From Bacteroidales bacterium (GTDB taxonomy: Bacteria; Bacteroidota; Bacteroidia; Bacteroidales; UBA932): 64,000 nucleotides of DNA. Below the pieces are notes generated by a model. That model did not search any database and was not told the origin of the DNA. It saw nothing but the letters and a program-made list of their open reading frames with translations. Where the stretch lies: the NCBI GenBank assembly GCA_017630155.1, contig JAGBVU010000005.1, forward strand, positions 144,342-208,341, in the 5' to 3' direction. Positions within the stretch are counted from its first letter, which is position 1. The number at the start of each line of letters is the position of its first letter. Of the stretch, positions 28,620-45,347 are shown one piece after another. The position numbers were made by a program, and so were the translations under genes.

Positions 28620-29153
28620 TCAGAACTCCAGACGGAAACCCTTGCTTTTGAGTTCCGCATATTTTTCCGGGTTGAAACTGTAGTTTATAGGGATCCTGCT
28701 TCCGGCATTTTTGGGTCTGGTCCCAACCTCAGTCAGAATGCCGAGCTTGAGCATCTTGTTTGAGAAATTCCTTCTGTCAAACTTCACCTCGAGAATAGAT
28801 TCATAAAGCTCCTGAAGCTGCGGCATCGTGAACACATCGGGGAGAAGTTCGAAACCGATAGGGGCAAAATGGATTCTCTCTTTCAAGGTCTTGAGGGCCA
28901 CTCTTAGAATTCTGTCATGGTCAAAGGCCAGCTGGGGAACCTCATCAATAGGAAACCATTGGGCATCGGCTGCATCATCTCCACCCTTTACTTCGCTCTT
29001 TTTTACCAGAGCATAATATGCAATAGTTATCACCCTCTCACGTGGGTCCCTGTTCACCTCGGAGAAACATCCGAACTGCTCCATGTAATGGGTATCAAGA
29101 CCGGTCTCCTCCATCAATTCTTGTAAAGAATGGATGATATTTTTCGTTACCAA
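28620..29153 (-). pseudogene. Nudix hydrolase / NrtR-like regulator, 5'-truncated
   Basis: The ORF begins inside the Nudix box (..LQELMEETGL), so the upstream Gx5Ex7 half and the N-terminal beta-strands are missing. A C-terminal winged-helix-like part is present. The first 8 codons lie in AT-rich foreign DNA and overlap the helicase ORF tail. Confidence 0.6.
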
Positions 29154-31698
29154 GATTAATAATGTATAAATTCTTTTTAGCTCTCGTGATGGCAGTGTAT
29201 ATTAGTTCAGGATAATTTTCAGCATCACTAGTTTTACTTGGCCGTTGTATTACAAGAAAAATATTATCTGCTTCCCATCCTTTGTAACTATAAATGGTTG
29301 ACAATTTTAGCATATTAGAACTCATCGTAAAATGAGTTTTTCTATTTGTACGAATCTCCTCTATTGCATTACGGAAGCATTTATCTTTTACGTCATTATA
29401 TTTATTTAAAATTATGTCGTACTCTTCCTTCGTTTCAAACACACTCATACTTGACTTTCCTGTAGATTGAGAATATGCGTACTGAATTTCTCGTAAAATA
29501 TCAACTCTTTGAGATAGTATGGCAGTTTTCTGGATTTCTAATTTATCATTATCTATGCAATGTAAAATACAATTGGCTATTGTGTCAGCACTGGCATCTA
29601 CTGACAAGTAATCATACCTTGGTACTTTGTTGTCAAATGACAATATTAATTCATTCTGCTCAATTTCATCAGGATTTTCAAAAAACTCATTTTGAAACTG
29701 AGACGCAAGATTCACGATATGCTGATTATTAAGCCTACGTCCCACTTTTAACCTATTCCAAGGGCCCCACGTTCTACCTCCTAAATTCGGTGTACTATTA
29801 AATGTTCGACGACAATAAACATCTTGCTTTTCATCTCCAAAAATAACAAGTTCTCCACCTTCTTTAAGGAAATTATTATAAAGAATGTGGTACCAATTAT
29901 ATTCATAGTCTTGGGCTTCGTCAATGAATATCGCAGAATACTTTGGAAGATTATCAACTACTTCACTGAAGAAGTTCAGTGTATTGTAAGATGTCAAATC
30001 TAATTTTAGATTATAATTTTTGGCCTGAGTAGTAATGAAGTTATGATAATTGGTAATTACAAATTTATTCCAAGGAAAATCAGCAGGAACACGTCCTATT
30101 CTATATCGGATATAGTTTGCCAATGTAATATTATAGGTTAGTATGAGTATACGTCCTCCTGTTCGCAGTTGAGATTTAACAGCACTGGATGCCAATATCT
30201 GCGTCTTACCCGATCCAGCAACGCCTTTAATTCTAATTTGTCGTCCGTCAAAGCTTTTTGCAAGTTCTCTTTGTCTTTTTGTTAACACAATTTCTCCGTC
30301 TCCCTCATTATATGAGTGCCATTGCATCGTAAGCATTTTTATGATTTCTGAGCTAGCTTCTTTTGTAAATTCTTTACGCGTGCGCTTGACATCTAAGCTA
30401 TATAATATTTCATTATTATTAAAATCTTCAGTTGATAGGGTTACAACTCCTGATATAATATTGGGATTATGAGCATCTTTCTTTTCACCTGCATATACTG
30501 AATCAATTGCTACTCTTGTACTATTTGTAAACCAAATAGCAGGGCGCACAATATACCAGCCTACATTTGACACTAAAGCCGCTTTTAACAATTGTGTAGA
30601 GTGTTGTTCTATAAGGTTTGTCCTGTACGTGTATACTCGAGACAGTGGAGATGGTATTGCTAATCCACCTCTTGATAACATCCCGTTATTCAATGTAAAT
30701 TGATCCAAATTTTCTGAAAACACATTGAGAATTACTATACCTTTTCCCGGCCTGATTAATACAATGTCTGGTTTGTCTCCCTTAAGATCAGGAGAAAGAA
30801 AAATTCGATCATTTTCACTGAGGGTACTGGATATTTTCCGATACACATTAAGAACATCTTGTGACACAAGACCATTTCTTACCATTGCATCAAGGTCGTA
30901 ATCATCATAAGCACCTTCATCTGTATAGTGACCTTCATGGACTACTGCAATAGAATTACTAGTGTTTTCAAAATAAAATCCTTTAGTTTTACAACTAAAT
31001 GTATGAAAAGTATCAGAGGTGACACCAAAACATGGGTCATAGATATCAGAAAACACAGATGTGTTATAGAAATATCTTGAAAATTCATCTATTCTTGAGC
31101 AATTGTCATTAGTCGGTCCAACACACACAACAAACTGCTTACCACGCGCATCTGCAACAATTTTTGCTGTCTTTTGCAATGAAATAGATATTATATCCAA
31201 TATATTTGAGAAAAGATGAATAGTCCCTGGTAGTGTAAGATTGAGCTCTGAAATCTGTGGCACCGGACTATCATTTGATGCAGGCAAGAAGTTCTGAATA
31301 CCTATAACTTCAACATTCCAGCCTTCTAATGCTTTAGATATATTTTCTACAGCCCTTGATAAGGCAATGGGAGATGGTTCTATGAGAGTCACTCTTTTAA
31401 GTCTTCTCAATAGATATGGATCTCGCGCATACAAACTATCCATCATACAAATAGTACCAATACCTTGCCCACACCCCCAATCGACAATTTCGAAAGTTGA
31501 TGGCAGTTCTTCATAAGGAAAGTTCTGCAATGCACTTAGGCATTTGCATTTATGCATTTCACCATATGCACATATATATGCGTTTAATTCATCAGTTGAC
31601 TTTAAAAGTTTTTTGCCATGATCAATATACGCCCATGGATTTCTCCTCCAGCTGAACGGCAATTCTAGCCTTGCTCTTTCAATAATACGGTCTATCAT
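29095..31698 (-). CDS. Fusion protein: class I SAM-methyltransferase-like domain, NERD/PD-(D/E)xK-like region, and UvrD/SF1 helicase
   Basis: Methyltransferase motif I VDWGCGQG (aa 72-79) with LIEPS after it. Strand pattern DIVLIRPGKGIVILNVF (aa 311-327). Walker A GVAGSGKT (aa 492-499), Walker B FIDEAQD (aa 591-597), and a UvrD_C-like end YSYKGWEADNIF...YTAITRAKKNLYIIN. AT-rich. Confidence 0.8.
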   Translation of the reverse strand: MIDRIIERARLELPFSWRRNPWAYIDHGKKLLKSTDELNAYICAYGEMHKCKCLSALQNFPYEELPSTFEIVDWGCGQGIGTICMMDSLYARDPYLLRRLKRVTLIEPSPIALSRAVENISKALEGWNVEVIGIQNFLPASNDSPVPQISELNLTLPGTIHLFSNILDIISISLQKTAKIVADARGKQFVVCVGPTNDNCSRIDEFSRYFYNTSVFSDIYDPCFGVTSDTFHTFSCKTKGFYFENTSNSIAVVHEGHYTDEGAYDDYDLDAMVRNGLVSQDVLNVYRKISSTLSENDRIFLSPDLKGDKPDIVLIRPGKGIVILNVFSENLDQFTLNNGMLSRGGLAIPSPLSRVYTYRTNLIEQHSTQLLKAALVSNVGWYIVRPAIWFTNSTRVAIDSVYAGEKKDAHNPNIISGVVTLSTEDFNNNEILYSLDVKRTRKEFTKEASSEIIKMLTMQWHSYNEGDGEIVLTKRQRELAKSFDGRQIRIKGVAGSGKTQILASSAVKSQLRTGGRILILTYNITLANYIRYRIGRVPADFPWNKFVITNYHNFITTQAKNYNLKLDLTSYNTLNFFSEVVDNLPKYSAIFIDEAQDYEYNWYHILYNNFLKEGGELVIFGDEKQDVYCRRTFNSTPNLGGRTWGPWNRLKVGRRLNNQHIVNLASQFQNEFFENPDEIEQNELILSFDNKVPRYDYLSVDASADTIANCILHCIDNDKLEIQKTAILSQRVDILREIQYAYSQSTGKSSMSVFETKEEYDIILNKYNDVKDKCFRNAIEEIRTNRKTHFTMSSNMLKLSTIYSYKGWEADNIFLVIQRPSKTSDAENYPELIYTAITRAKKNLYIINLGNEKYHPFFTRIDGGDRS

Positions 31699-32744
31699 AG
31701 TCCAATTATCGTTTCACTAATTGGTAAGTTTTTATGTCTCTTAAAGTTTTGGTTTGCTAATTCTTTCGAGGAATTAGCATAGCAATACTCACATTGATGG
31801 ATGCAGGTATTGTATTCTCCGATATCTTTGCTTTCTATGCAGCCACAAAACACTCTCTGACCTTTATCTTTCCTACCCTTTTTCTTTACAGCATATTTCC
31901 CATTACCAAGGTCTATAGCTCCATCAGGTATCTCACCAAATATACCAGTTTCTTCGATTGTTACCCCTAAATGCTGCATGAGCTCTATATCACGATGAGC
32001 AAGTCGTATAATGAGATCGTCATCAATACACTTATTATGACTTATACCATGTTGTTCTATATCAATTTTTTCTCCGCATGTGGCTAACTCGAACCCCCAC
32101 TTCTTATTTAATAGCGATAACTTTTTCGCAAAGTCATTCATTAAGTCAGGAGTCCATTCAATATAATTTATTCCACACTTTTTGAGGTTGGCTTCAACTT
32201 TCCTATATGAAGCAATATCAACAAAACTAAACACAAGTTTTTCCGTGTACCCTTTAAGATTATTACCGATATATTCTATTTTGCGTAATAAATCATCAAT
32301 ACTAATCTTATCAGTTAAAATCAATGGGTCAAATCTCCAGATAACCCGCCCTTTACCAAGAATTTTTACAAGTTCTTTAAATGTTTCTATTCTTGTATCT
32401 ACACTTGGAACTGACTTCTCCAATTCCTCTGAGACATAATCATTGAGTGTAAATTGAATGTAACAACCAATACCCTTATCTTGTAATTTTGATAGGTATG
32501 GAATCAGCGGTCGCGGATTTTTAGACCAGAATACTATAAATCGGGTATGCTTATAAGATATGTAGCTTTTTACTCCGTTAAAAGGATTAATCCAAGCAGA
32601 ATATCCTTTATCCAGTCTATGAAAAAACCAATCTGCATAAAATGCCGGTATATCTGTACTTCGGCTTGCTGACACTATGATGGGTTCCTGAGCAGGGACC
32701 ATTTCACCACTTTCCCTTGTTATATAAGGTTTAGAGTTGAGCAT
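31695..32744 (-). CDS. DUF1848-like protein with a C-terminal radical-SAM-type Cys cluster
   Basis: 349 aa. C-terminal CGC (aa 300-302) followed by CIHQCEYC, a CX3CX2C motif (aa 314-321). Its stop overlaps the helicase start (ATGA). The family name comes from recollection of PF08902 and was not verified. Confidence 0.65.
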   Translation of the reverse strand: MLNSKPYITRESGEMVPAQEPIIVSASRSTDIPAFYADWFFHRLDKGYSAWINPFNGVKSYISYKHTRFIVFWSKNPRPLIPYLSKLQDKGIGCYIQFTLNDYVSEELEKSVPSVDTRIETFKELVKILGKGRVIWRFDPLILTDKISIDDLLRKIEYIGNNLKGYTEKLVFSFVDIASYRKVEANLKKCGINYIEWTPDLMNDFAKKLSLLNKKWGFELATCGEKIDIEQHGISHNKCIDDDLIIRLAHRDIELMQHLGVTIEETGIFGEIPDGAIDLGNGKYAVKKKGRKDKGQRVFCGCIESKDIGEYNTCIHQCEYCYANSSKELANQNFKRHKNLPISETIIGL

Positions 32745-32821
32745 TTACAAATATTTTATTTAGATTTTAGCTGAATACGCCACCACAATTACCGCATTGA
32801 CTCTATTGTCAATGTGCTATA

Positions 32822-32829
32822 CAAAGTTA
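32822..32829 (-). promoter_or_regulatory. -7 box TAACTTTG (minus strand) for the DUF1848-helicase operon
   Basis: Reverse complement of caaagtta, about 78 nt upstream of the ATG at 32744. Confidence 0.4.
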
Positions 32830-32915
32830 CATAAATTATAATATCCTAACAAAACCACCTTTTCAACCATCTTACCCAACTTTACAACCCTATCACAACA
32901 CTCACCCCTCTTTTT

Positions 32916-33515
32916 TTACTCCACCAAAAACACTCTACTCTCTTTGTTGTGTGCTTTGGCAATCATCATGTCTTTTATTTTTGCTTGGAAGTCATCTTCT
33001 GGTGTGTAATCATTGAGTATGGCCAGGCATTTGTCAAATTCACCGATCTCTCTATACATTTCAGATCTGAACAGAGGATTCCCAATAAAGATTGGCTGGC
33101 CTAAACTTTTCACTATGATTTCCCTCAGCAAATCTAAATGTTCTGGTTCGGCCTCAATTTCACTATGGCGTATCTTGTCGTTGAAAGCCCACACGACTAT
33201 CATAGTTAGAAGTTCCAGATTACTGATTTCAGTATCGTAAAGTTCACTGTATGCCTCTACGGCTTCTTCGAACATCAACCAACCTAGTTCAGATGAGTAC
33301 GTGTTACCATTTTCAAATTTGGCTTCGCGCAAATAGAAGTAATGCCCGCAAAAAGAGCATTTCTGAACAGGTGACACTCGGGGCAGCATAGGCGCAATTT
33401 GGCGCATATCAGACCAAAGCATTGCATCGCATGTGTTTCCGGACATCAGTTGGAAAATCTCATTTTTGCCCCCACAGTGGGGACAAACAGCAAGTTTACA
33501 AAAAGCAGGAAGCAT
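32916..33515 (-). CDS. Zinc-ribbon protein, unknown function
   Basis: CPHCGG ... CSFCGH pair at the N-terminus and a helical C-terminal half. No family recognised. Confidence 0.55.
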   Translation of the reverse strand: MLPAFCKLAVCPHCGGKNEIFQLMSGNTCDAMLWSDMRQIAPMLPRVSPVQKCSFCGHYFYLREAKFENGNTYSSELGWLMFEEAVEAYSELYDTEISNLELLTMIVVWAFNDKIRHSEIEAEPEHLDLLREIIVKSLGQPIFIGNPLFRSEMYREIGEFDKCLAILNDYTPEDDFQAKIKDMMIAKAHNKESRVFLVE

Positions 33516-33630
33516 AATGATAAATATTAATGTTATGGTTTTCTATGATTTTATCACATAAGCAGCACTATGTAATAACACTACGAAGTTACAACCATCA
33601 CAACATTGAACGAAATATTATGCCCCCGAA

Positions 33631-33661
33631 TGTATGAAATGGTAGCTAAGGTGTACGAAAC
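33631..33661 (-). promoter_or_regulatory. Second pair of ATTTCATACA-type direct repeats at 21 bp spacing
   Basis: tgtatgaaat at 33631-33640 and tgtacgaaac at 33652-33661, 116 nt upstream of the zinc-ribbon gene. Confidence 0.4.
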
Positions 33662-33796
33662 TGAGTGCCATGACAATTTTCAACATTTTTACTTAAAAAA
33701 AATAGCCATCATCGCTCCTGATGAAAGCTCTTTTGATCTGTAATCAGCAACTATATTTCCCCGAATTTTCTTAATTCCCCGTTTTTAGGGTTTAAG

Positions 33797-34672
33797 TTAT
33801 TCCTCCTGTTCGTAATAATACGAGTAATCGATGCCCTTCATGAAGGTTTCGCGGTCGTGGATTTTGTCTGTAAGAGCTGATGCGAGAAGTTTGTGGATAG
33901 GGGTGGGGTTGACTACGCTGGTCTGCATGGCCTGGAGGTAGTCGTTTTTGTTGATTTGGCTCCAGTCGACACATCTCTGTAAGCGTTTTTTGAGGATGAG
34001 GTCGAGCCATATACGGGTGGAGCGGCCATTGCCTTCCATGAATGGATGGGCGACGTTCATTTCTACGTATTTGTCAACGATCTGGTCTAATGTATCTTCC
34101 GGCATTGATTCTATCTTCTGCAGTTCGTGTGGGAGATATTCTGCAAGGCAGAAAGTGAATCCTCCTTTGCTGATGGTCTTGTTGCGGATTTGACCGGCAA
34201 AGTCGTAGAGACCGCCGAAGATGTAGGCATGAATCTGCTGCAGGGACTTTATTGTTCCAACATCTTCATATGCCACGAGGTTGCTTTCCATGAAGGTGTA
34301 TGCCTTCTTCTTACTTTTGCCGTCTATTGTGTTGTCACTGTATGTGAACCAGTCGAGGAATGCATTTGCTCTATTGTTCGGATAGTGCTTAGCGAGGATT
34401 TCCACACATTCATTGTCAAGAGCATCTGCAGTTCGCTTCTTTCCGTCAGGAGCCTCAAATTTGAAGTCGTGAGTGATACTCACGAGTTGAACTCCATCTG
34501 CGTTCAGTTTCTTCTTCAGCCAACGCCAATAGTTTCCAGCCTTGACATAGTCATCTCCCTTATTGATTGCACGGACGATGTCAATCGCAGAAAACCACCA
34601 CTTGGAATTGATTTCATCCCAAATGGCTCTGACCTCGCGGTCATTGAAGAATCTGATGAATATCTTACTCAT
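33797..34672 (-). CDS. Bro-N domain / Fic (AMPylase-type) family protein
   Basis: N-terminal Bro-N-like pattern (FNDREVRAIWDEINSKWWFSAIDIVRAI). Canonical Fic motif HPFMEGNGRSTR. Confidence 0.85.
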   Translation of the reverse strand: MSKIFIRFFNDREVRAIWDEINSKWWFSAIDIVRAINKGDDYVKAGNYWRWLKKKLNADGVQLVSITHDFKFEAPDGKKRTADALDNECVEILAKHYPNNRANAFLDWFTYSDNTIDGKSKKKAYTFMESNLVAYEDVGTIKSLQQIHAYIFGGLYDFAGQIRNKTISKGGFTFCLAEYLPHELQKIESMPEDTLDQIVDKYVEMNVAHPFMEGNGRSTRIWLDLILKKRLQRCVDWSQINKNDYLQAMQTSVVNPTPIHKLLASALTDKIHDRETFMKGIDYSYYYEQEE

Positions 34673-34804
34673 AGAAGCAAAGGTACTAAATTTATAGCAC
34701 GGGACCTATATGTTCTCTAAATATCTCACCGCAATTCCCTGAGACTTGGCGTAGGTAATTTCGTTACGGGTGCTTTCGTGCAAAACAGTGTCGAGGACAG
34801 ATGG

Positions 34805-35278
34805 CTATGGAGAAATTATAAAACAAAGAGCCGTCATCGCTCTGACATTTTTATCTGTAACTCGCAACAAATTGCGGTAATGTGTCCAAGATAGTATTTG
34901 GGATTTTCCACTCACTGTGTGGAAAATCTCAGTGAAGAACTTATAAAACTCAACAAACTGATAGAGATTGCTCTTTGTGAATCCCTTACCATATACATTC
35001 GTGAGGTGATCGGCAAGTCGTTTGATAATTTCCTTACCATACTCAACTCTATTCACTCCCTGCAATTCTTCATCAACAATACGCTTACCCAACAGCCAAT
35101 TACGCTGTACCATAGCCACATTAACGGCGTGATATGCATAATTGCGTGTTTGTTCAATGATATTCTGTGAATCCTTAAAAATATCACCTGTATTGCTAGC
35201 CTTTAGTATCTCTATGTCTTGTTTCATAATGCAGAGATATATACTTTTGTCGAAATGAGACACATACAATGATTCCAT
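34805..35278 (-). pseudogene. 3'-truncated copy of the DUF1016/YhcG-type PDDEXK nuclease gene
   Basis: The first ~148 codons are near-identical to the N-terminus of 44174..45289. The nuclease half is absent, and the reading frame runs into unrelated sequence. Confidence 0.85.
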
Positions 35279-35336
35279 CTAGTAGAACAAAACGGCCCAG
35301 ATCTTTAACGAATCTGGGCCTATTTTTTTATTTATT
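34847..35336. repeat. ~490 bp direct repeat, copy 1 (pairs with 44857..45347)
   Basis: About a dozen mismatches over ~490 bp by eye. It includes the nuclease gene 5' half, its upstream region, a hairpin terminator and the last 9 nt of the 45339..47390 gene. Confidence 0.9.
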
Positions 35337-35521
35337 GCCTTCGTGCAAAACGGAGTCCAGCATAGATGGCCCTAGATAGGCCTCTGATCACGATTCCGCT
35401 GGACACCTGAACCATTTAGCTCGGTTATCCAAGCCAACGCCATTCACAACTCCTTGTAAAGCACTTTAGACTGGACAATTACTAGTAGGCTCATATGAAA
35501 AGTACTATAATTATATATCTA

Positions 35522-38500
35522 TCATTTCAATAAACTTATCTCATCAGTAGACATTCCAACAATCTGTAATAATGTGATCATATCATCTGTATTTGTTGCC
35601 CATAGAGTCGGCTCATGTTGGAAATTATGCTTACACAACTCATTCCACTTAGAACGTTCAGATTCAAGAGAAGCAGACAAGAATAAGAGCTTACAATTAG
35701 TATTTCTAGAATCACGGCTTTCAATCATAGATTCTTTTCTTACAAATGCATCAGACTTCTTATCCATTTGCTGGAGCAATTCATTGACATCAGTGTATCT
35801 GCGGTCAACATACGGATAATTTTCCTCACCCACCACATGCTTGTAAATAGAAAAGCCCTTCAATCTTGACCATAATGCGTTGATTAATGTCTCTTTAAGA
35901 GTATTCTTGAACTTAATTATCTGATCTTCACTTATATTGTACTGATTCTTGAACATTGAAGACAACCTAATCTCCTTAGTTATACTATCTTTCTGTTCTT
36001 CAAAGTATGAATCAAGACAAGGGTTAGATATCAATGATAGGAACGGTTCTCTATTCATTGGCTCAATCTTCACACTTTCCTCTTCTTCAGCACGCCAAAC
36101 CTTAAGATTACCGACATACGATTTCATACCGTTATACTTAGTATGAAGATTCTTTGACAATTTGGAAAGAGAGTCAATAATCATACCGGCAACATGGGTC
36201 TTGATATGTATTATATCTATCTCCCTAGTCCTCTTTGTTATCTCGTCAGTTATTCTGTCTAATCGATGTTTGTAATCCTCATCCAGATCCACTTTCTTAT
36301 GTTTCCTTTGTTTAGACCACAAAGCGAAGACGAGAGAGCCTACGACTAACAAACCGTAAACGATATAACTCACAGTACTAAATAACACATCCTCTACTGA
36401 TTCACTATACGAGCACACTAAAATAAATGTCAACAGGATAGTTGCAGCCACACCCCAGAACACCCATTTTGTAACCTTAGTTTTCTTATCAAAAGCCTCA
36501 AGCTGCACAGTACGCTCTTCATGAACACGTTCCTTTGAAGAATGCAAGTCGCGTTTTTCCATCTCAAGACGCTTAATAGATCCGTCGCAAATAGAATTTC
36601 TCGTCGCATTGTTTCCAAGAAGCTGCGTCAAAGTATTATATTCAACCGTTTTTGCACTGAATTTGGTACTGAGTGTTGCCAGATTTACCTTTTCTTCCTC
36701 TATAAGATTCTTCAATATCGCTGCCTTAATCTGGGAGTTTGACATATCGAATGATATTGTTGTCTTATTGTCCTTTCCTCCTACCGTGAGTTTATTGTCT
36801 GAAATCTGAGTAATAATACAAGCAATATTCATCAGACTCGGATCAGCTATGTAAGAATATGGTATATAGCAATATCCTCTATCACCAAATCTTGTTCCCC
36901 ATGAATTCCTTACAATGAAGATCTTCTCCTCCTCACTGTAACCACAGAGAATCATCGCATGATTTCCACTTTCCCCAGAAATCTCTTCAGAGGTTGGTCG
37001 AGAAATGAATCCCTCTACTGGCTCGAATGAGTCATAAATCTTCAATGATATTGCTACAGGGTATCCTTCAGAAATTGCTGATTTTATATCATCAAGGGTG
37101 CCCTTTACATTCAACGCCTTAATTATCTTGTTACTCTGTGCATCATCATAGGCCTCTTGCGAAGGATTTATATCTAATGTTTCCGAATACGGACAGAAAC
37201 GTTCATGGCAAACACCCTTATCAGTAATTGAAGATATTACTTCAAAGAGAGAACTTCCTGTATCTTCTTTCTCCTTATTGTTGGCTTTGCGCACATTATA
37301 GTAAACAAAGCTCTCACTCAAATCTGGCTCGCTTATACTATTCCTTTTAAGGATATATTCGAAAATGCCGACAATTGAGAATGCAGAACATGCACCAATT
37401 TCACCCTGATCTTTAATCGTAGTAAAGAACGGTCTCAAATCCACCTTTGCAGGAAGATTTGTCTTTGGAACATAATCCTCAGAACAAGGAATTTCAGTAA
37501 CATTCGCCTGCAGCTGGTACGTTTTACCCTCAAAAACAAAACCGTCACGAGTTAATCTCTTCTGGCTTTCAGTATTATCTTTTATTAAAACCTCTACCCC
37601 CTCTAATTCCTCTGACTTATGACGAATGTAATTTGAAGACTCCCTCATCCTAACCTTGATCGCCTTCACATCATCTATAATCGCACTCGCAGATGCCACT
37701 GCTGTCTTTGCTGAACCTGAAAGTGCTGCATACTCTGCAATAGACTCTCGTTCTGTTTTCTCTGTAGCAACGTCTGTTTCTTCTATCGACGTTGTAGGAT
37801 ATAGCGCAGCTAGATTATTATTCAATTGAACAAACAAATCTAGCACTTCCCTAGCACAGTCATCAATTACAAGTTGACGCTTATTGAACATATATCCAGT
37901 CAATAAATCGTCATCCTCGCCTAAAAGTTGAGCTAATGTCGCCTTCTTCTCTGGCAAAGACAAGTTATCGTCATCGACAAAAGACTGGAAGACATCAGTC
38001 AAACGTTGAACCTCGGTCTGAAGTTCCGGATGTATCTGAGCTATTATTTCATCTTGTTGTTCTCCCCTATCAAGTCTCGCCTTTACAGATTTATTATAGA
38101 AAGAGGTAAATATCTCTACATTCTCTTTCAGAATCTTTTGTACAATCTGAGAGACCTTATTTACATCTACCTCTTCTTGGCGTACCTTTTCCCTATCAAG
38201 GATATTGATATAGGCTTTATGCAATAGATATTGCACAAAGTAATACTTGTCAAAACTTAGAACAGAGAGGCCTAGTGCATGTATCAATCTATCCTCCGAC
38301 TCTGCAGCAGGATTAAATAGTTCCTGATAATGATTTAAGGAAAGAAGAGTATATTCTCCAATGATTCTCACAAAGGACTCAAGCACCAGATTCAATGCAA
38401 CTCCCGCAGAGTTACAGTTCTGCAATAGAATCGCATGCGCTATCTGTCTTTGAGTTTTATTGAATTCAATGATTTCATTGATGGTCTTCTTAGTCTGTTG

Positions 38501-39025
38501 TTGGTACTCATTTACCTTAAGAGGCAACAAGTCGGCATCCTTCTCGAACAGATAGGCAAGATCGTAAGGAAGCAACAAAAGGTCAACATTGTAGTTCTGC
38601 GGGATTGCATTTATTGCTCCTAAAAACTCCTTGATTGTTGACCAACACTTTGCATCATATGTCTTCAGGTGAAAACACACATGCAATGATGTAGAATCTC
38701 CAGGATTGTTAATCGTTACTTGACGATTATATAATTCAGAGTAAAAGCTCTTCAAATACTCGCTTCTATTCGCTGCCGGGATACGATATTTCTCAACAGA
38801 CTTTACTGAGTACAAGTTATCAATACCTGCAACAAACTTACTGGCATCATCTAGAGCAGGTATGGCCTCATAAAAAATAGAGTCTCCTTCCCGCTTGTCA
38901 TCAAATAATATGGCACGAAAAAAATCCGTCGACTTTTCATTACCATACTTAATGATGTACTCCTGAAGATTGCAAAGCATCTGCTCGGCATTACTGCCGA
39001 GCATTATATGCACCGTGTGTCTCAT
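35522..39025 (-). CDS. Multidomain membrane protein: degenerate tubulin-like N-domain, papain-like (C1) cysteine peptidase, coiled coil, 2 TM helices, C-terminal domain
   Basis: Peptidase C1 triad motifs KDQGEIGACSAFS (Cys546), GNHAMILCGY (His689), VRNSWG (Asn707). TM helices at about aa 853-875 and 884-903. The N-terminus aligns by eye to the GTPase of the upstream gene but has lost the glycine loops. Confidence 0.8.
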   Translation of the reverse strand: MRHTVHIMLGSNAEQMLCNLQEYIIKYGNEKSTDFFRAILFDDKREGDSIFYEAIPALDDASKFVAGIDNLYSVKSVEKYRIPAANRSEYLKSFYSELYNRQVTINNPGDSTSLHVCFHLKTYDAKCWSTIKEFLGAINAIPQNYNVDLLLLPYDLAYLFEKDADLLPLKVNEYQQQTKKTINEIIEFNKTQRQIAHAILLQNCNSAGVALNLVLESFVRIIGEYTLLSLNHYQELFNPAAESEDRLIHALGLSVLSFDKYYFVQYLLHKAYINILDREKVRQEEVDVNKVSQIVQKILKENVEIFTSFYNKSVKARLDRGEQQDEIIAQIHPELQTEVQRLTDVFQSFVDDDNLSLPEKKATLAQLLGEDDDLLTGYMFNKRQLVIDDCAREVLDLFVQLNNNLAALYPTTSIEETDVATEKTERESIAEYAALSGSAKTAVASASAIIDDVKAIKVRMRESSNYIRHKSEELEGVEVLIKDNTESQKRLTRDGFVFEGKTYQLQANVTEIPCSEDYVPKTNLPAKVDLRPFFTTIKDQGEIGACSAFSIVGIFEYILKRNSISEPDLSESFVYYNVRKANNKEKEDTGSSLFEVISSITDKGVCHERFCPYSETLDINPSQEAYDDAQSNKIIKALNVKGTLDDIKSAISEGYPVAISLKIYDSFEPVEGFISRPTSEEISGESGNHAMILCGYSEEEKIFIVRNSWGTRFGDRGYCYIPYSYIADPSLMNIACIITQISDNKLTVGGKDNKTTISFDMSNSQIKAAILKNLIEEEKVNLATLSTKFSAKTVEYNTLTQLLGNNATRNSICDGSIKRLEMEKRDLHSSKERVHEERTVQLEAFDKKTKVTKWVFWGVAATILLTFILVCSYSESVEDVLFSTVSYIVYGLLVVGSLVFALWSKQRKHKKVDLDEDYKHRLDRITDEITKRTREIDIIHIKTHVAGMIIDSLSKLSKNLHTKYNGMKSYVGNLKVWRAEEEESVKIEPMNREPFLSLISNPCLDSYFEEQKDSITKEIRLSSMFKNQYNISEDQIIKFKNTLKETLINALWSRLKGFSIYKHVVGEENYPYVDRRYTDVNELLQQMDKKSDAFVRKESMIESRDSRNTNCKLLFLSASLESERSKWNELCKHNFQHEPTLWATNTDDMITLLQIVGMSTDEISLLK

Positions 39026-39029
39026 AGAC

Positions 39030-41771
39030 CTATAGATGTTTCTTTACGTAATCGAGTTCCAAAGTTATAAGCTCTCTGATTCTCTCAAATCCCTTTGCCT
39101 TTATTTGGTCCTTTGTCATATTTATCTGAGAGTAAGCATTCAGATAGTTAGCCTTCGCAGCAGATATTATCTTTAAAACAGCCTCCTGCCCCTTTTGAGA
39201 AACAAGGGTTTCAATAATATCAGTAAACTCTTTCAATATCACGGCCTTGTTCCTTCTAAACTCATCATAAGCCTCATCGCGATATTTGCCCAAATCTACC
39301 CAGTTATCATCCAGAGTATCTCCTAGTTCCTGACTCTGGAACTGATATGTACCATTGTCATTTCTCACAAGGCCAAAAATAAAGCCCTTAACCCACATTT
39401 CAAGTAAATCGTCATCAGAAGCCCTCTTAGGAACAATAGCATACTCTTCTCTTACCATTCTTGTCAACATATTATTGTCGAAATGGCAGTTTACATTACA
39501 ATCCTCATATTCTCTCTTGTATTCCTGAATTGATGAGATTGCGTATGCCGGAACTACACCAACCTGTCTATAGATGATGATTCTATCGTTCACGCCGATG
39601 TTTGCAAAATCCACATCCGCAGTACCATGTATCTTACCCTTGAAATAGTTGTCCTTAAAGAGACGACTCGTTGCTTTATTTGGTACACCCACATAGAAAC
39701 TATCTCTAGGATTTTCCTTTGGAGCATAACCTCTATAATTGTATCGGAACAATGGCATAGACTTCTTGACTGCCAATTCTACAACATGCTTGAAATCGTC
39801 TTCTGACAATTTATCAATTATCTGATCAATTGTTGTCTCTGCCAATGACTTTGCGACATGAGTGCGTGATGTATAACGCAAGAGCATATCCTCTACCTCT
39901 CCTGAAGACAACTCATGGAATCCGTATATTTTTCCTTCATTGATTAGTGTCCTTACAAAATCCGAAATCTGGATATCATCCTGCTTAACAGACACTTTTG
40001 ATGCCGCTTCTAGGGCAAGGTCGATCTGGAAAGTACGAGAAGTCTTACCCACACTGTTCTGGATCTTTGAAAGATCAGATGTAAACTTCTTATATATACC
40101 ATTAAGAGTGCTATGTATAACCTTCACTTTATCCTCAGCAATCTGAAGCATTGACAGAATATTGTTAAACACAGTGAGCGCAGAGGTCCTACGAACGATC
40201 TCTCTCTGACATACCACAAGCTGCCTTACCGCATCAGCCACATCTGTAGCTCTATCCTCTAAAGTCGACGACTTCTTAAAGAACTTGGAGTCATATTCTT
40301 TAAGATCCGCTACTGCGGTTTCCATCGCAGTTCTCAGCCTTGGCTCCTTGTCAACAAAGTCTTCTTTCTCTTTCTGCATCTCTCCGATGAAGAGATTTAC
40401 CTGAGTACGAATACCCTCAATAATTTTTGCCGCAGTTGAAACACCACACTCTTTATTGATATTTGCCACCAAGAGTTCACGAAGTTCCTTCCTAACTCTT
40501 GATGTCAAAGTAGTAATCTTAGGTGACACGAATTCATCAGCCAACTGCTGAGCTGCAATGTACTGCTGGATTTCAGGAGTTGGATTAGCATACTCGTTGA
40601 TAGTGATATCATACTTTGGATTCTTATCAGCAATGAAATCAATAACGTGGTCATTATTATTGTTTTCTCTGATATTCACTTTCTCAGAATCAATCCAAGA
40701 GTTTACAATCACATCAATATCCTCACATGTATTTTGTAATCTCTCAATGAGACTCTTTGCTGCCTTGATTGAATATATCTTACTAATTGACGAACTCTTG
40801 TAAAGAATCTCGCAAACACCCATACCTGCAGCCCATGCCTTTTTGTTCTCAATATCCATTGAGCCTTCTGCAATATTCTTCTCAAGGTTATCACTCACAC
40901 TCGCTGATGCAGTGGACAGCTCTCCTGCTGAGGTAACCAGAGCAAGACTTATCATCTCGGTCAGTTCATCAATATGAGTATACGAATCATTATTCTCATT
41001 CTTATTATCAATGAAAACGACCGAATTGAATGGTCGCTCTTTTATCTCATAACTATCTCTTATGTACTCCAATTTGACAGGAGTAGATCCAATACCCATA
41101 TGCATGAGATAGTCAAGATCCTGAATTGCACCATATGCATTTGGTGCAACTTTTGCCATACCTGAATTAGACATCGACTTGAACACATCCGGAAGGACCG
41201 CATAACCTGTAAGTTTGCATCCCGGAGCCTCCTTACGAAGCAGATATGCCATATTTAAGAAAGTGCCACATCCTGTTCCACCACACACAGAGAATATCAT
41301 ATGAATCTCTGTATCTGAGCCCAAGAGCTCATACTTATCGTTATTGATTATTCTTGCATTTGTAATCTGGTCAAGAATGCTTCTAATCTTCTGCGCTACC
41401 TGAACATAATTAACTGTGAATGCAAATCTTCCATTTGTCCTTACCTGTCCTGCGCCCTGATTCAGGGAAGACAATGCATACAAGTTCTTATCTGGCACCC
41501 AAGAAAAGTACTCCTTATTCACATCATATATAGGTCGAGGATCTCGAACAATAATAGGAAGCTGCTCATTTGGCAAAAGGGAAATTTCCTCACCCGTTGT
41601 AGATGGGAGAGTCTTCTTATATTGATTTCCATCTGTATCAATACCCATGAAGCCGATCATAGGTGGAACCTCACCATATGTATCAACGAACATCTTCTTT
41701 GTGTGAAGAAGCGCATTCATACCTGTACCACCCATTCCGACGTACAGGCATCTTTTAATTTTTGAGCCCAT
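39030..41771 (-). CDS. Tubulin/FtsZ-superfamily GTPase-like protein with a long helical C-terminal extension
   Basis: T1-like GMGGTGMNA (aa 12-20), T3-like NQGAGQVRTNG (aa 104-114), and T4 signature-like CGGTGCG (aa 163-169), in the correct order. 913 aa. Confidence 0.7.
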   Translation of the reverse strand: MGSKIKRCLYVGMGGTGMNALLHTKKMFVDTYGEVPPMIGFMGIDTDGNQYKKTLPSTTGEEISLLPNEQLPIIVRDPRPIYDVNKEYFSWVPDKNLYALSSLNQGAGQVRTNGRFAFTVNYVQVAQKIRSILDQITNARIINNDKYELLGSDTEIHMIFSVCGGTGCGTFLNMAYLLRKEAPGCKLTGYAVLPDVFKSMSNSGMAKVAPNAYGAIQDLDYLMHMGIGSTPVKLEYIRDSYEIKERPFNSVVFIDNKNENNDSYTHIDELTEMISLALVTSAGELSTASASVSDNLEKNIAEGSMDIENKKAWAAGMGVCEILYKSSSISKIYSIKAAKSLIERLQNTCEDIDVIVNSWIDSEKVNIRENNNNDHVIDFIADKNPKYDITINEYANPTPEIQQYIAAQQLADEFVSPKITTLTSRVRKELRELLVANINKECGVSTAAKIIEGIRTQVNLFIGEMQKEKEDFVDKEPRLRTAMETAVADLKEYDSKFFKKSSTLEDRATDVADAVRQLVVCQREIVRRTSALTVFNNILSMLQIAEDKVKVIHSTLNGIYKKFTSDLSKIQNSVGKTSRTFQIDLALEAASKVSVKQDDIQISDFVRTLINEGKIYGFHELSSGEVEDMLLRYTSRTHVAKSLAETTIDQIIDKLSEDDFKHVVELAVKKSMPLFRYNYRGYAPKENPRDSFYVGVPNKATSRLFKDNYFKGKIHGTADVDFANIGVNDRIIIYRQVGVVPAYAISSIQEYKREYEDCNVNCHFDNNMLTRMVREEYAIVPKRASDDDLLEMWVKGFIFGLVRNDNGTYQFQSQELGDTLDDNWVDLGKYRDEAYDEFRRNKAVILKEFTDIIETLVSQKGQEAVLKIISAAKANYLNAYSQINMTKDQIKAKGFERIRELITLELDYVKKHL

Positions 41772-41782
41772 TGTGTTATTAT

Positions 41783-43715: not shown

Positions 43716-43914
43716 AGAAACGCATTATAATATACCATTAAAACGAAAGCGTGGCGCTGAAGCTTATCTAACTGACTGGTCCTAGGAATAACCGCGTGAA
43801 TAAATAAGCGACAACCCCACGCCGTAAATCCGGATTGGATACGACGAAGGAGCGAGCTTATCCTCTTCACTTATGAATTTCCTAGGTTCGTCAGTGAGAA
43901 CAAACTACACTTTC
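43716..43914 (-). other. ~200 nt GC-richer structured insert between the promoter and the vWA gene, flanked by an 11 bp direct repeat
   Basis: gtgtttttcat occurs at 43705-43715 and 43915-43925. Nested complementary arms: aaacgaaagcgtg / cactttcgtgttt and ctgac..cctaggaa / ttcctagg..gtcag. Confidence 0.5.
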
Positions 43915-43935
43915 GTGTTTTTCATCATGTATGTG

Positions 43936-43943
43936 CAAATATA
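43936..43943 (-). promoter_or_regulatory. -7 box TATATTTG (minus strand) upstream of the four-gene operon
   Basis: Reverse complement of caaatata. It ends about 8 nt before the ATGATG of the 7-codon upstream ORF. Confidence 0.4.
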
Positions 43944-44056
43944 AATATTTATCCGTTTATAAACGAATAAATACGGATTTATTCCTCACTTAAAGAATAT
44001 TACATAAATCATCTCATTGCTGTCCGGTAAGTTCCGGACAGCAATGAGTCTCCTAA

Positions 44057-44097
44057 TAAAAACAAAGAGCCATCATCGCTCCTGATGACAGCTCTTT
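44057..44097 (-). terminator. Hairpin terminator after the DUF1016 gene; sequence shared with 33703-33741 and half of it with 34822-34845
   Basis: On the minus strand, aaaagagctgtcatcaggagcgatgatggctcttt is followed by gtttttatt. Confidence 0.6.
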
Positions 44098-44173
44098 TGA
44101 TTCTGTTGCGGTCGTAGGTTTTCTTCGATTTGTGGATCACTTTATTTGCATATACAGAAACACTCCCGACTAA

Positions 44174-45289: not shown

Positions 45290-45347
45290 CTAGTAGAACA
45301 AAACGGCCCAGATCTTTAACGAATCTAGGCCTATTTTTTTATTTATT
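44857..45347. repeat. ~490 bp direct repeat, copy 2 (pairs with 34847..35336)
   Basis: See copy 1. This copy lies in its native context: a full-length nuclease gene and the true 3' end of the neighbouring gene. Confidence 0.9.

Follow-up and report, generated by a model that had tools for sequence, protein, structure and literature searches.

AlkB is a repair enzyme of DNA and RNA, a demethylase. It requires O2, and strict anaerobes, Bacteroides among them, are reported to lack it (PMC2790896). The comparison below suggests that DUF1848 is the oxygen-independent counterpart of AlkB, acting with a helicase-borne methyltransferase. Of other described systems, Gabija appears at our locus only as weak GajB matches in PADLOC, with the GajA/OLD partner absent, and DarT/DarG offers an analogy, its writer/eraser logic being similar to that which we infer for DUF1848 and the MTL domain of the neighboring gene. 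As the original prediction had it, the pair is not a named system, neither PADLOC nor the open literature giving a match. The two coupled genes do form a genuine module, conserved widely and as yet without a name. The fusion encoded by gene 2 has over 868 full-length homologues (P0001, from a Bacteroidales MAG, matches it at 100% identity) and DUF1848 about 4,500 clusters at 50% identity, which excludes chance. The window, by which we mean the whole 64-kb stretch of DNA analysed, holds these features:

31695..32744, minus strand: gene 1, DUF1848 protein of 349 aa (ORF; predicted beta/alpha barrel with seven invariant Cys)
31782..31847, minus strand: Cys cluster of gene 1, C300-x-C302-x11-C314-x3-C318-x-Y320-C321 (sequence; C-terminal CX3CX-phi-C motif of radical-SAM type)
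31695..31698, minus strand: ATGA stop/start overlap, translational coupling (ORFs and sequence)
29095..31698, minus strand: gene 2, 867-aa fusion of MTL, NERD-like domain and UvrD-type helicase (ORF)
30829..31698, minus strand: MTL domain, residues 1-290, divergent class I SAM-methyltransferase fold (AF2 and Foldseek)
31462..31485, minus strand: SAM-binding motif I VDWGCGQG, residues 72-79 (sequence and conserved columns)
30289..30828, minus strand: NERD-like domain of PD-(D/E)xK fold, residues 291-470 (PADLOC C3a187 and column counts)
29098..30288, minus strand: UvrD-type SF1 helicase, residues 471-867 (Pfam, motifs and near-invariant columns)
30202-30216, minus strand: Walker A GSGKT, residue 495 (sequence)
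29908-29922, minus strand: helicase motif II DEAQD, residue 593 (sequence)
29095..29129, minus strand: junction of helicase and nrtR (sequence, family C-terminal consensus and GC shift)
28620..29129, minus strand: 5'-truncated nrtR (Nudix + winged-helix) remnant adjoining the module (profile matches, with the remnant taken as 28620-29153)
29100..45300, no strand: low-GC island of ~16 kb (GC 0.34-0.44 vs 0.45-0.52 in the flanks; gene content)

The ORFs and sequence bear out the coupled minus-strand pair with its ATGA overlap, and both genes are AT-rich as claimed (GC 0.34-0.37 at 29-33 kb vs 0.45-0.52 in the flanks). Pfam DUF1848 (PF08902) matched the 349-aa protein at E = 1e-92 (311 bits), in agreement with the prediction of a DUF1848-like protein with a C-terminal CX3CX2C, which reads C300-G-C302-x11-C314-IHQ-C318-EY-C321. 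That motif is no peculiarity of this copy but a feature of the whole DUF1848 family: C223, C239, C300, C302, C314, C318 and C321, with Y320, were invariant among 53 homologues, upholding the proposed radical-SAM-type spacing, and the C-terminal motif was kept in viral homologues of 28-48% identity. The CX3CX-Tyr-C is followed by YA, as seen in SPL-type radical SAM enzymes. Homology to the radical SAM core was not detectable by Pfam, hhalign or Foldseek; the Pfam Radical_SAM profile (E = 0.11, 13 bits, cut-off 29.5) aligned at the Cys motif only, and hhalign against an SPL-like radical SAM domain gave 15 columns, all in the Cys-motif stretch. The AF2 model (pLDDT 87.5) has alternating beta/alpha elements, so that a barrel is indeed predicted, but Foldseek matches in the PDB were to generic TIM barrels only (E > 1e-3). 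Radical SAM enzymes recur among the weak fold matches of DUF1848. Model confidence is poor around C300 and C302 (pLDDT <50 for residues 291-303), and because these two Cys lie beside the motif, the site could instead hold zinc, or a non-radical cluster with Cys as all of its ligands. With a mean identity across loci of 64% (MTL 39%, helicase 40%, NERD-like domain 28%), seven invariant Cys and a predicted barrel, DUF1848 looks like a constrained enzyme. Some DUF1848 members carry the JGI label 'DNA repair photolyase'.

In gene 2, the AF2 model of MTL (pLDDT 92.7) matched many SAM methyltransferases with a Foldseek probability of 1.0, so that the predicted union of a SAM-binding part with an SF1 helicase holds, as does the reading of motif I without DPPY/NPPY. 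Neither DPPY/NPPY nor a recognisable catalytic motif IV was found in MTL, which matched no Pfam family, DNA methyltransferases included, and for which no close characterised relative was found. The family invariants (Y41, G46/H49/K52, D73-W-G-C76-G77-Q78, E107-P-S109, R115, H161, S164-N165 and D168) hold across all partner types, with the SAM pocket intact. The NERD-like assignment is supported by the PADLOC C3a187 'NERD+UvrD' model (residues 287-846, E = 1.5e-42) but not by Pfam NERD, which did not match the 867-aa protein. Its D297, D308, D311, R316 and G320 are conserved and, as foreseen, ExK is replaced, the position being N325-V-F327 family-wide. This is the fastest-evolving part of the protein; BLAST misses the domain in 5 of 14 loci and elsewhere gives 24-40% identity between loci. 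The helicase is complete, as had been read from its GSGKT, DEAQD and UvrD_C parts: UvrD_C_2, AAA_19 and UvrD-helicase all scored above Pfam cut-offs, and TRAK lies near the C-terminus.

The association of DUF1848 with a helicase, on which the original prediction was built, is conserved as a coupled pair, with DUF1848 directly upstream of the fusion in all three contigs of distant fusion homologues and gaps of -4 to +12 nt at 14 further loci of MTL + NERD-like + UvrD architecture in a genome sample. The unit, however, is DUF1848 + MTL, and the helicase is swappable. Among 80 DUF1848 loci from distinct species, an MTL ORF lay immediately downstream in 42 (gap -7 to +16 nt) and MTL within 6 kb in 56, while one locus (L033) had DUF1848-MTL-LRR as a single ORF. 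MTL is fused to NERD-like+UvrD (14 loci) or to RecQ/DpdF/PsyrT-like SF2 helicases (15), is fused or linked also to Upf1-like SF1, LRR_5, Sel1, Ank and TPR partners, and occurs stand-alone (254-374 aa) adjoining DUF1848; at L088, DUF1848, MTL-Ank and NERD+SF1 helicase are three separate genes. Judged from these sequences, DUF1848 + MTL is the constant core, and helicase/NERD one among many interchangeable modules. The LRR, Sel1 and Ank fusions of MTL would suit protein recognition more than the targeting of nucleic acid.

A survey from the MTL side, of 80 loci from metagenomes, recovered DUF1848 as the partner in 35, an intact AlkB-family 2OG-FeII_Oxy_2 gene in 29, neither in 16 (many of them truncated at the edge of the contig or of the fetched flank, though no fewer than 3 are not) and both in none, an exclusivity with Fisher P = 1e-10. 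Partner type was uniform within each of 35 MTL clusters at 60% identity. The AlkB partners occupy the same position as DUF1848 and keep HxD...H, NxY and RxNLTFR. MTL-RecQ proteins with AlkB are full-length orthologues of the DUF1848-partnered ones (39-57% identity). They fall within the diversity of the latter, in which some pairs are no more than 35-41% identical. The named DUF1848 loci belong to gut or rumen Bacteroidales, Treponema and Clostridia, with others on human-gut contigs, whereas AlkB versions were found on Nostoc and TARA ocean contigs, apparently an anaerobic/aerobic split, as read from the few contigs with informative names. It is this presence of AlkB in DUF1848's place in apparently oxygen-exposed microbes that suggests the oxygen-independent counterpart, and the mutually exclusive replacement points to an alkyl mark on nucleic acid that is removed or processed. 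The nucleic-acid modification system originally proposed was the right direction. The displacement speaks for equivalent parts played by the two enzymes in the module rather than for a shared chemistry. Since members of the AlkB family also act as hydroxylases (ALKBH8), 'processing' of the mark is as allowed as 'erasing'.

Our preferred reading, held tentatively and at somewhat less than an even chance, is a mobile two-gene writer/eraser conflict module in which gene 2 is the writer and gene 1 (DUF1848) an anaerobic AlkB-like eraser; the conflict would probably be of anti-phage or toxin-antidote type. The UvrD-type motor would travel along and unwind nucleic acid, and MTL, the putative writer, would put an alkyl group, most simply methyl, on exposed bases of single-stranded nucleic acid. 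The mark would be of an AlkB-reversible kind, e.g., N1-adenine/N3-cytosine type lesions, which act as blocks to replication or decoding, and the NERD-like domain, its nuclease motif lost, would probably serve binding or regulation. DUF1848, the putative eraser, would be an Fe-S enzyme with a beta/alpha barrel whose C-terminal CX3CXYC cluster probably serves radical-SAM chemistry; it would remove or oxidatively process the alkyl mark anaerobically, as AlkB dioxygenases do using O2. Host nucleic acids would be kept clean by DUF1848, and invader nucleic acid would suffer the damage.

Genomic context favors the conflict reading. Neighbors of the module elsewhere include AbiE, McrBC, AbiP2, Mokosh- and Menshen-type genes and integrases, and a four-gene variant includes an ADP-ribosyl writer+eraser protein (2CompART+2CompARG); such defence-island context was seen at several loci, not all, L001 lying among housekeeping genes. 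Solo DUF1848 is common (24 of the 80 DUF1848 loci), and occurs also in jumbo phages and giant viruses, where one copy adjoins a WLM protease; MTL lacking both partners is rare. A link to DNA comes from other lineages, in which DUF1848 forms fusions with N6/N4 DNA methylase, SPL-like radical SAM domains or clamp-loader/MgsA-type AAA+ modules.

The displacement data also fit a two-step hypermodification scheme, which we rate as unlikely, where MTL methylates a DNA or RNA base and DUF1848 (AlkB in aerobes) modifies the methyl further, in the manner of Trm9/ALKBH8 or MTase/TET; the helicase or repeat module would give target access, and the product would mark self or tune tRNA/rRNA, with no poisoning of invaders. 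The AlkB family does include hydroxylases acting on a methyltransferase product (ALKBH8), the fusion of DUF1848 to N6_N4 DNA methylase exists, and the very high DUF1848 conservation would be expected with a fixed small substrate. Yet no conserved restriction partner or reader was found, the AlkB partners bear a repair-type signature (RxNLTFR), MTL partner domains are highly variable, as is typical for conflict systems, and the asymmetry between frequent solo DUF1848, viruses included, and rare lone MTL is easier to square with an antidote than with the second step of a pathway.

Ordinary DNA repair is a distinctly poorer prospect. DUF1848 would mend alkylation or photoproduct-like lesions anaerobically, by direct reversal or as a lyase-type enzyme, with the helicase as its motor, and MTL would merely bind SAM/SAH as cofactor supplier or sensor, writing nothing. 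AlkB's own role in repair, the JGI photolyase label, the fusions with SPL-like radical SAM and clamp-loader/MgsA modules, the standalone viral copies (one beside the WLM protease) and the housekeeping setting of L001 are consistent with repair, but it leaves unexplained the tie of two enzymes of unrelated fold to one methyltransferase-like domain with intact SAM pocket, the MTL fusions to LRR, Sel1 and Ank repeats, and a patchy distribution on islands, linked to integrases, with AbiE, McrBC and Fic as neighbors.

The nucleotide-effector system that had been offered alongside modification did not hold up, the AlkB replacement pointing elsewhere, and we regard it as very improbable. DUF1848 would here be a radical SAM enzyme that turns a nucleotide into an antiviral molecule or signal, as viperin does, or else makes a messenger from SAM, and MTL would sense or supply SAM or that molecule, switching on the helicase effector. 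Such a scheme would suit the radical-SAM-type motif, the partner's SAM-binding fold without recognisable motif IV, and the matches to ancillary-type PADLOC models, NERD+UvrD (C3a187) and CARF_2OG (the AlkB-like partner), which, to judge by their names, presumably belong to the accessory sets of type III CRISPR. However, DUF1848 is replaceable by an AlkB-type dioxygenase with a nucleic-acid repair signature, and no AlkB enzyme is known to make nucleotide signals or chain terminators; no conserved nucleotide kinase, cyclase or signal-degrading gene was found nearby, and most variants have no effector besides MTL (MTL-only, MTL-LRR, MTL-Sel1). Hardly credible is an atypical R-M or Gabija/Nhi-like system whose methyltransferase shields self DNA while NERD+helicase cuts foreign DNA, since, despite the architecture of methyltransferase fold, NERD-like domain and SF1 helicase and the GajB and 'NERD+UvrD' matches, the NERD ExK is lost family-wide, DPPY/NPPY, a DNA-methyltransferase Pfam match and GajA/OLD are all absent, MTL is found without any nuclease or helicase, and such systems have no role for DUF1848 or AlkB.

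At the present locus the nrtR remnant (NrtR_WHD E = 1.5e-18; NUDIX profile positions 51-131) covers positions 72-230 of the 245 in NCBIfam NtrR, and homologue alignments start at residue 9 of its ORF. The last ~5 codons and stop of the helicase are nrtR Nudix-box sequence (…ELMEETGL) read out of frame; the helicase family C-terminal consensus ends …FFxxxIx. The claimed insertion into nrtR is half supported: the truncation stands, with the helicase stop inside nrtR-derived sequence, but no 5' nrtR piece lies within the 64-kb window. Nor is the island limited to the gene pair: it spans ~16 kb (29.1-45.3 kb) and holds the module, a Fic gene (Fic/PDC-S04), DUF1016/YhcG copies, a tubulin-like/peptidase cluster and a 300-nt direct repeat.

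The two open reading frames of the original prediction and the ATGA that they share (31695-31698) are present exactly as it described them, and the two sit at the left edge of a low-GC stretch of the window (GC 0.34-0.37 over 29-33 kb and low up to ~45.3 kb, with 0.45-0.52 on both sides). The features at this edge are as follows.

28620-29153, nrtR remnant ORF, which keeps the last two-thirds of a Nudix/winged-helix regulator of the NrtR type (match to positions 72-230 of the 245 in the NtrR profile)
29095-31698, minus strand, fusion ORF, 867 aa
31695-32744, minus strand, DUF1848 ORF, 349 aa
32916-33515, minus strand, zinc-ribbon protein, 199 aa, upstream of DUF1848, with CxxC...CxxC motifs and no family assignment

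A Bacteroidales MAG protein (P0001 in our protein sample) matches the 867-aa fusion at 100% identity. The neighbours of the fusion are DUF1848, the nrtR remnant and the zinc-ribbon protein. The zinc-ribbon gene was considered as a third component and rejected, since it recurred only in contigs of the same strain.

The pair had been said to have inserted into and truncated the nrtR gene. Full-length NrtR homologues align only from residue 9 of the remnant ORF, inside the Nudix box; the final ~5 codons and stop of the helicase gene are an out-of-frame reading of nrtR sequence, and the helicase family consensus stops just ahead of this nrtR-derived tail. Neither a regex search nor tblastn with two full-length homologues found the 5' part of nrtR in the window. 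The junction and the missing 5' piece therefore show that the island truncated nrtR; simple insertion, the other part of the claim, is not shown, because deletion or recombination accompanied the truncation. When an empty site was sought through contigs encoding the identical flanking protein, every such contig had the island. Three other species also have an NrtR-like Nudix gene no more than 6 kb upstream of DUF1848 (L027 1502-2122, L043 3254-3784 and L078 5471-5917; L-numbers denote loci sampled from genomes and metagenomes), and in L078 an integrase and an HTH gene are followed by a 148-aa Nudix gene directly before DUF1848. Such proximity could reflect either a recurrent integration neighbourhood or a functional link.

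The 349-aa protein belongs, as foreseen, to Pfam DUF1848 (PF08902), matching profile positions 1-262 of 262 at E=1e-92 and 311 bits against a cut-off of 30.5. Its C-terminal CX3CX2C is real (C314-IHQ-C318-EY-C321, within C300-G-C302-x11-C314-IHQ-C318-EY-C321) and is a signature of the DUF1848 family, not a local oddity: C223, C239, C300, C302, C314, C318, C321 and Y320 are invariant in 53 homologues, as is the loop S25-ASRSTDIPAFY that follows the first core strand. The family comprises 4,471 clusters (50% identity, E<=1e-3), mostly standalone proteins of 300-360 aa. Divergent standalone members occur in jumbo-phage and giant-virus contigs (L107-L134, from IMG/VR contigs of 30-435 kb, with L130 and L132 from GVMAG contigs); at 28-48% identity they keep the Cys motif intact, as GQRxxCxC-x11-CxHxCxYCYA, and have no neighbour encoding MTL, our name for the divergent class I SAM-methyltransferase-fold domain at the N-terminus of the fusion. 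A search for a conserved partner among the neighbours of phage-borne DUF1848 genes found none; on the giant-virus contig L130 the gene next to DUF1848 encodes a WLM (SprT/Wss1-like) protease domain. DUF1848 is also fused to other domains in single polypeptides (sampled proteins P0358, P0365, P0367, P0465 and P0394), its partners in other lineages being an N6_N4 DNA methylase (P0394), DNA_pol3_delta2/MgsA-type AAA+ (clamp-loader) modules and SPL-like canonical radical SAM domains, which among solved structures are closest to spore photoproduct lyase. Some members carry the JGI label 'DNA repair photolyase'.

Judged from its conserved cysteines, DUF1848 is likely to bind an Fe-S cluster. In sequence, C314-x3-C318-x-Y320-C321 fits the radical SAM CX3CX-phi-C pattern for a site-differentiated 4Fe-4S cluster, although at the C-terminus and not after beta-1, and CX3CX-Tyr-C-Y-A looks like the motif of SPL-type radical SAM enzymes. 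The likeness to SplB/COG1533 (spore photoproduct lyase) extends to a barrel-type fold and to the fusion of DUF1848 with SPL-like radical SAM domains in some proteins; DUF1848 differs in the C-terminal placement of the motif, in two extra invariant Cys pairs and in lacking, outside the motif, any alignment with the radical SAM core. The AlphaFold2 model (pLDDT 87.5, with low confidence only at residues 291-303) alternates strands and helices in a beta/alpha barrel. The radical SAM core was not recognised by Foldseek against the PDB, by Pfam or by hhalign. Foldseek of the model against the PDB returned only generic TIM barrels (AKR, DHDPS, IspG; E>1e-3, TM 0.2-0.3), and against BFVD weak matches of which several are radical SAM enzymes; Pfam Radical_SAM scored 13.1 bits against a cut-off of 29.5 (E=0.11, residues 312-336 only); and hhalign of DUF1848 with the SPL-like radical SAM domain covered 15 columns at 45% probability. 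As this alignment reaches the Cys motif only, a circular permutation of the radical SAM fold is not supported. PDB sequence searches with DUF1848 and with the fusion, as single sequences or profiles, gave nothing meaningful, and DUF1848 has no sequence relative among solved structures. Thus the predicted fold can be assigned no further than 'beta/alpha barrel', and DUF1848 is not established as a member of the radical SAM superfamily.

The three parts proposed for the fusion fared differently. Residues 1-290 (MTL) have no Pfam or NCBIfam match, and their closest PDB sequence match, CmoA/YecO (E=0.005), covers the motif region only. Their AF2 model (pLDDT 92.7) has the Rossmann-like seven-strand class I SAM-methyltransferase fold, and Foldseek gives probability 1.0 to CNMT, TrmK, NTMT1, TehB, NNMT and others; its matches also include GRAS domains. 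Class I motif I and the acidic residue ending beta-2 (E107) are present, and the residues of the SAM pocket (D73-W-G-C-G-Q-G, E107-P-S and H161-x-F-S-N-x-x-D168) are invariant across all MTL subtypes. The absence of a DPPY/NPPY motif was borne out: the motif IV position reads H-L-F-S-N-I-L-D, and the fusion has no match to N6_N4_Mtase or a related Pfam domain. Residues 471-867 are the complete UvrD-type SF1 helicase expected, with near-invariant GSGKT, DEAQD and TRAK (Pfam bits against cut-offs: UvrD_C_2 35.1/27.4, AAA_19 32.4/25.1, UvrD-helicase 31.7/23). Between them, the NERD-like part is spanned by the PADLOC composite 'NERD+UvrD' model (287-846, E=1.5e-42), but it is degenerate and the fusion does not match Pfam NERD (PF08378) even at E=10. 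It retains D297, D308, D311, R316 and G320, while the ExK position is N325-V-F327, with N in 35 and F in 45 of 58 family members. It is also the fastest-evolving part, at 24-40% identity where BLAST finds it and undetected in five of 14 loci. We treat it as a probably nuclease-dead or atypical PD-(D/E)xK fold.

In each of the three contigs that we examined for distant homologues of the fusion (37-45% identity), DUF1848 immediately precedes the fusion gene; on one of them the pair shares an island with AbiE, McrBC and a gene of the Schlafen/AlbA type. A genome scan with one genome per species yielded 80 DUF1848 loci, nearly all from Bacteroidales, plus Treponema and Clostridia, which we searched with HMMs of the three parts of the fusion. 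An MTL ORF followed DUF1848 immediately in 42 of the 80 (gaps of -7 to +16 nt) and lay within 6 kb in 56; in one (L033) DUF1848, MTL and LRR form a single ORF. The NERD-like+UvrD architecture accounts for only 14 of the DUF1848/MTL loci, with mean identities of 64% for DUF1848, 39% for MTL, 40% for the helicase and 28% for the NERD-like part. A homologue search with MTL only gave short proteins, so long fusions were enumerated by a metagenome scan instead. Elsewhere MTL is fused to an Upf1-like SF1 helicase, to BspA-type LRRs, to Sel1 repeats or Sel1+LRR, to TPRs, or to RecQ-like SF2 helicases in proteins of 1,370-1,800 aa; short MTL proteins, with ankyrin repeats or without an extra domain, also adjoin DUF1848, and in L088 DUF1848, MTL-Ank and a bona fide NERD+SF1 helicase are separate genes. 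A four-gene variant runs DUF1848, UvrD-like helicase (340 aa), 2CompART+2CompARG and a 500-aa MTL (L090/L091 1232-6506; also L191 and L221), its third product being an ADP-ribosyltransferase and an ADP-ribose glycohydrolase, that is, writer and eraser in one. In L010, L027 and L057, DUF1016 genes separate DUF1848 from the gene for MTL.

Since MTL occurs with so many modules beside DUF1848, the constant core is DUF1848 plus MTL, with helicase and NERD-like parts interchangeable. The interpretation first given is supported in part: the pair is a real, conserved and unnamed module, but the helicase is not its core. That DUF1848 and MTL constitute a functional unit we hold with great confidence.

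In two cases, one in Nostoc and one in a phage-like metagenomic element, an MTL-only protein is followed by an AlkB-family 2OG-Fe(II) oxygenase and DUF1848 is absent. The metagenome scan started from diverse MTL sequences. Of the 80 loci that it yielded, 35 had DUF1848 beside MTL, 29 an AlkB-like gene, 16 neither and none both (Fisher p=1e-10 for mutual exclusion, relatedness ignored). Many of the 16 partnerless loci end at the edge of the contig or of the fetched flank, but at least three (L145, L146 and L163) lack a partner even though both flanks are there. When MTL was clustered at 60% identity, 22 clusters were AlkB-only, 13 DUF1848-only and none mixed. The AlkB partners retain three motifs: HxD...H, which is the iron triad, NxY and RxNLTFR. 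The large MTL-RecQ proteins that follow AlkB are orthologous over their full length to those that follow DUF1848 and are nested among them: L195 (AlkB) and L210 (DUF1848) are 57% identical, whereas the DUF1848-partnered L008 and L166 share only 37%. This is in-situ displacement by a non-homologous gene, the classical signature of equivalent function, and that AlkB and DUF1848 exclude each other as partners of one methyltransferase-like domain is a robust comparative-genomic fact whatever becomes of the eraser model below. We consider it fairly probable that the two play the same role in the module. While DUF1848 shares with the AlkB family of Fe(II)/2-oxoglutarate nucleic-acid dioxygenases (AlkB, ALKBH2/3, ALKBH8) a genomic slot beside orthologous MTL, its predicted beta/alpha barrel with Cys clusters differs from their double-stranded beta-helix, and the features of the AlkB family (2OG-FeII_Oxy_2), namely the DSBH, HxD...H and RxxxxxR, are absent from it; at most, then, it would be a functional analogue of AlkB, not a family member, and presumably one independent of O2. 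AlkB requires O2, and strict anaerobes, Bacteroides and Clostridium among them, are reported to lack it (PMC2790896). In our small sample of readable origins, DUF1848 carriers came from gut and rumen anaerobes and human-gut contigs, and AlkB carriers from Nostoc and TARA ocean contigs, which fits an oxygen split with AlkB aerobic and DUF1848 anaerobic.

No PADLOC 2.0 system equals the pair of DUF1848 and fusion, and the open-access literature that we searched describes neither a methyltransferase/AlkB/helicase module nor an anaerobic AlkB analogue, in agreement with the view that the pair is not a named system. We know of no anaerobic counterpart of AlkB. PADLOC matched DUF1848 to 'RTasDUF1848' only (E=9e-39) and the fusion to 'NERD+UvrD', 'RTasNERD-Hel' and, weakly and partially, GajB (E=2.5e-13 or weaker). 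The RecQ-like part of MTL fusions matches the DpdF and PsyrT models (E down to 5e-75; L199 965-5095 and L210 4881-9419), and the AlkB-like partner in L136 (5905-6651) matches CARF_2OG (E=2e-64); these matches connect MTL modules with known families of defence helicases. UG25 reverse transcriptases (RTs) have an N-terminal methyltransferase domain and an associated DUF1848 gene, and UG35, a methyltransferase-RT, has a UvrD-like helicase as its associate (Mestre et al. 2022, PMC9226505); the UG25 association is the only mention of DUF1848 in a defence context in the open literature. These class 1 UG/Abi RTs resemble our module in combining a methyltransferase-domain protein and DUF1848 with a swappable nucleic-acid enzyme; they differ in that our module has no RT, and UG25 is itself uncharacterised. 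No RT domain was found in either protein, in adjacent genes or in the fusion proteins scanned for domains, so that, with matches only to the accessory models, a DRT/UG25-type RT system was rejected.

The best-supported model is a writer/eraser conflict module. MTL, borne by a helicase or coupled to a sensor, would use SAM to alkylate bases in single-stranded nucleic acid, and DUF1848, as an oxygen-independent and probably radical-SAM-like Fe-S counterpart of AlkB, would remove or process the mark and so shield self, by the logic of DarT/DarG. As a complete mechanism we advance this tentatively, its chances falling slightly short of even. Several features accord with the model: DUF1848 comes first and is translationally coupled, domains are shuffled rapidly, the setting is an island, and solo DUF1848 is common in bacteria (24 of the 80 loci of the genome scan) whereas MTL with neither partner is rare. 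A defensive elaboration strikes us as rather unlikely as a whole: DUF1848 would be an unrecognised class of O2-independent nucleic-acid dealkylase, an Fe-S/radical-SAM analogue of AlkB, and the self-protecting antidote to MTL proteins that would act as immune effectors, delivered by helicases or triggered via LRR, Sel1 or Ank sensors, and would alkylate the nucleic acid of invaders. On this reading DUF1848 would show how strict anaerobes and some giant viruses undo damage of the m1A/m3C type. In its proposed logic the writer/eraser model is like DarT/DarG in the base-blocking mark on ssDNA, the co-encoded eraser of unrelated fold, the adjacency of the genes and the capacity of erasers to stand alone, and our four-gene variant itself carries an ADP-ribosyl writer and eraser. 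The two systems have no homology: the putative writer here has a SAM-methyltransferase fold, not that of an ART, and is fused to helicases or repeat sensors, and in place of a macrodomain DUF1848 or AlkB would be the eraser.

The strongest rival is a two-step hypermodification pathway, in which DUF1848 or AlkB would modify further what MTL had modified. It has a precedent in ALKBH8, where a Trm9-like methyltransferase domain and an AlkB domain can act sequentially on one base, and it shares with the writer/eraser model the slot that AlkB and DUF1848 exchange; the abundance of solo DUF1848 and the rarity of partnerless MTL are what the writer/eraser model fits. Next comes an ordinary repair module, to which the AlkB partners and the photolyase label are relevant, as is, on the side of a conflict module, the island context. 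The original prediction had offered either a nucleic-acid modification system or immunity through a nucleotide-derived effector; a relation to nucleic-acid modification survives in the writer/eraser model, while the effector idea is a weaker rival. Least likely is a restriction-modification or Gabija-like nuclease system, which is contradicted by the missing ExK and by the MTL variants that have no helicase. The fusion shares with GajB, Nhi and other NERD/UvrD nuclease-helicase defence proteins an SF1 UvrD-type motor behind an N-terminal PD-(D/E)xK-fold domain. The module further differs from them in that GajA is absent, an additional MTL domain stands at the N-terminus and DUF1848 is obligatory as a partner. 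The corresponding specific assignments were rejected: Gabija, as the neighbours scanned against PADLOC did not match GajA/OLD-family models; an Nhi-like system, as the NERD ExK is missing; and a restriction-modification DNA amino-methyltransferase, as there is neither a motif IV (D/N/S)PP(Y/F/W) nor a DNA-methyltransferase Pfam match.

Were the writer/eraser model true, DUF1848, a family of ~4,500 clusters with no known function, would be a testable candidate to fill a long-standing gap, the anaerobic reversal of AlkB-type lesions. The modules would make up an unnamed family of conflict systems, large and modular, with an uncharacterised SAM-binding domain at its core, and with nucleic-acid alkylation as the effector they would embody a new principle of immunity, a parallel to what DarT does by ADP-ribosylation. 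The model would also account for DUF1848 beside the methyltransferase-fused RTs of UG25, and it predicts an anti-defence or repair role for the DUF1848 copies that jumbo phages and giant viruses carry. Should the eraser model prove wrong, the exclusivity of AlkB and DUF1848 still sharply narrows the possible functions of two domains of unknown function; the displacement gives these two domains a concrete, testable role and bears on how anaerobes handle AlkB-type lesions.

The remainder of the low-GC island contains a four-gene cluster (35522-43715), two DUF1016 genes, a Fic gene and short repeats.

33690-33737 and 44054-44101, ~48-nt repeat (90% identity) with the palindrome-like core GAGCCATCATCGCTCCTGATGA; partial third copy at 34820-34842
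33797-34672, minus strand, Fic-domain protein with an N-terminal extension (PADLOC candidate PDC-S04 E=1e-156; NCBIfam NmFic-type adenylyltransferase E=3e-77)
34805-35278, minus strand, truncated DUF1016/YhcG PDDEXK-nuclease gene, 157 aa
35522-39025, minus strand, four-gene cluster, 1,167-aa protein with transmembrane segments and, in its centre, a papain-like Peptidase_C1 domain
39030-41771, minus strand, four-gene cluster, Tubulin_2 protein, 913 aa (PF13809 E=3e-48)
41783-42796, minus strand, four-gene cluster, membrane protein, 337 aa
42702-43715, minus strand, four-gene cluster, vWA-like protein
44174-45289, minus strand, full DUF1016/YhcG PDDEXK-nuclease gene, 371 aa

The four-gene cluster, which like all its members is on the minus strand, looks like an uncharacterised system of its own; its 1,167-aa peptidase protein, the one member scanned, had no PADLOC match. 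It is flanked by a 300-nt direct repeat (97% identity) common to both DUF1016 genes (34840-35139 and 44851-45150), which suggests insertion or recombination at a DUF1016 gene. The Fic gene is likely another defence or toxin gene of the island. Two copies of the ~48-nt repeat lie just 3' of minus-strand genes, Fic and the full DUF1016, and the truncated DUF1016 ORF has the partial third copy at its 3' end; the repeat may be a terminator or a REP-like element.
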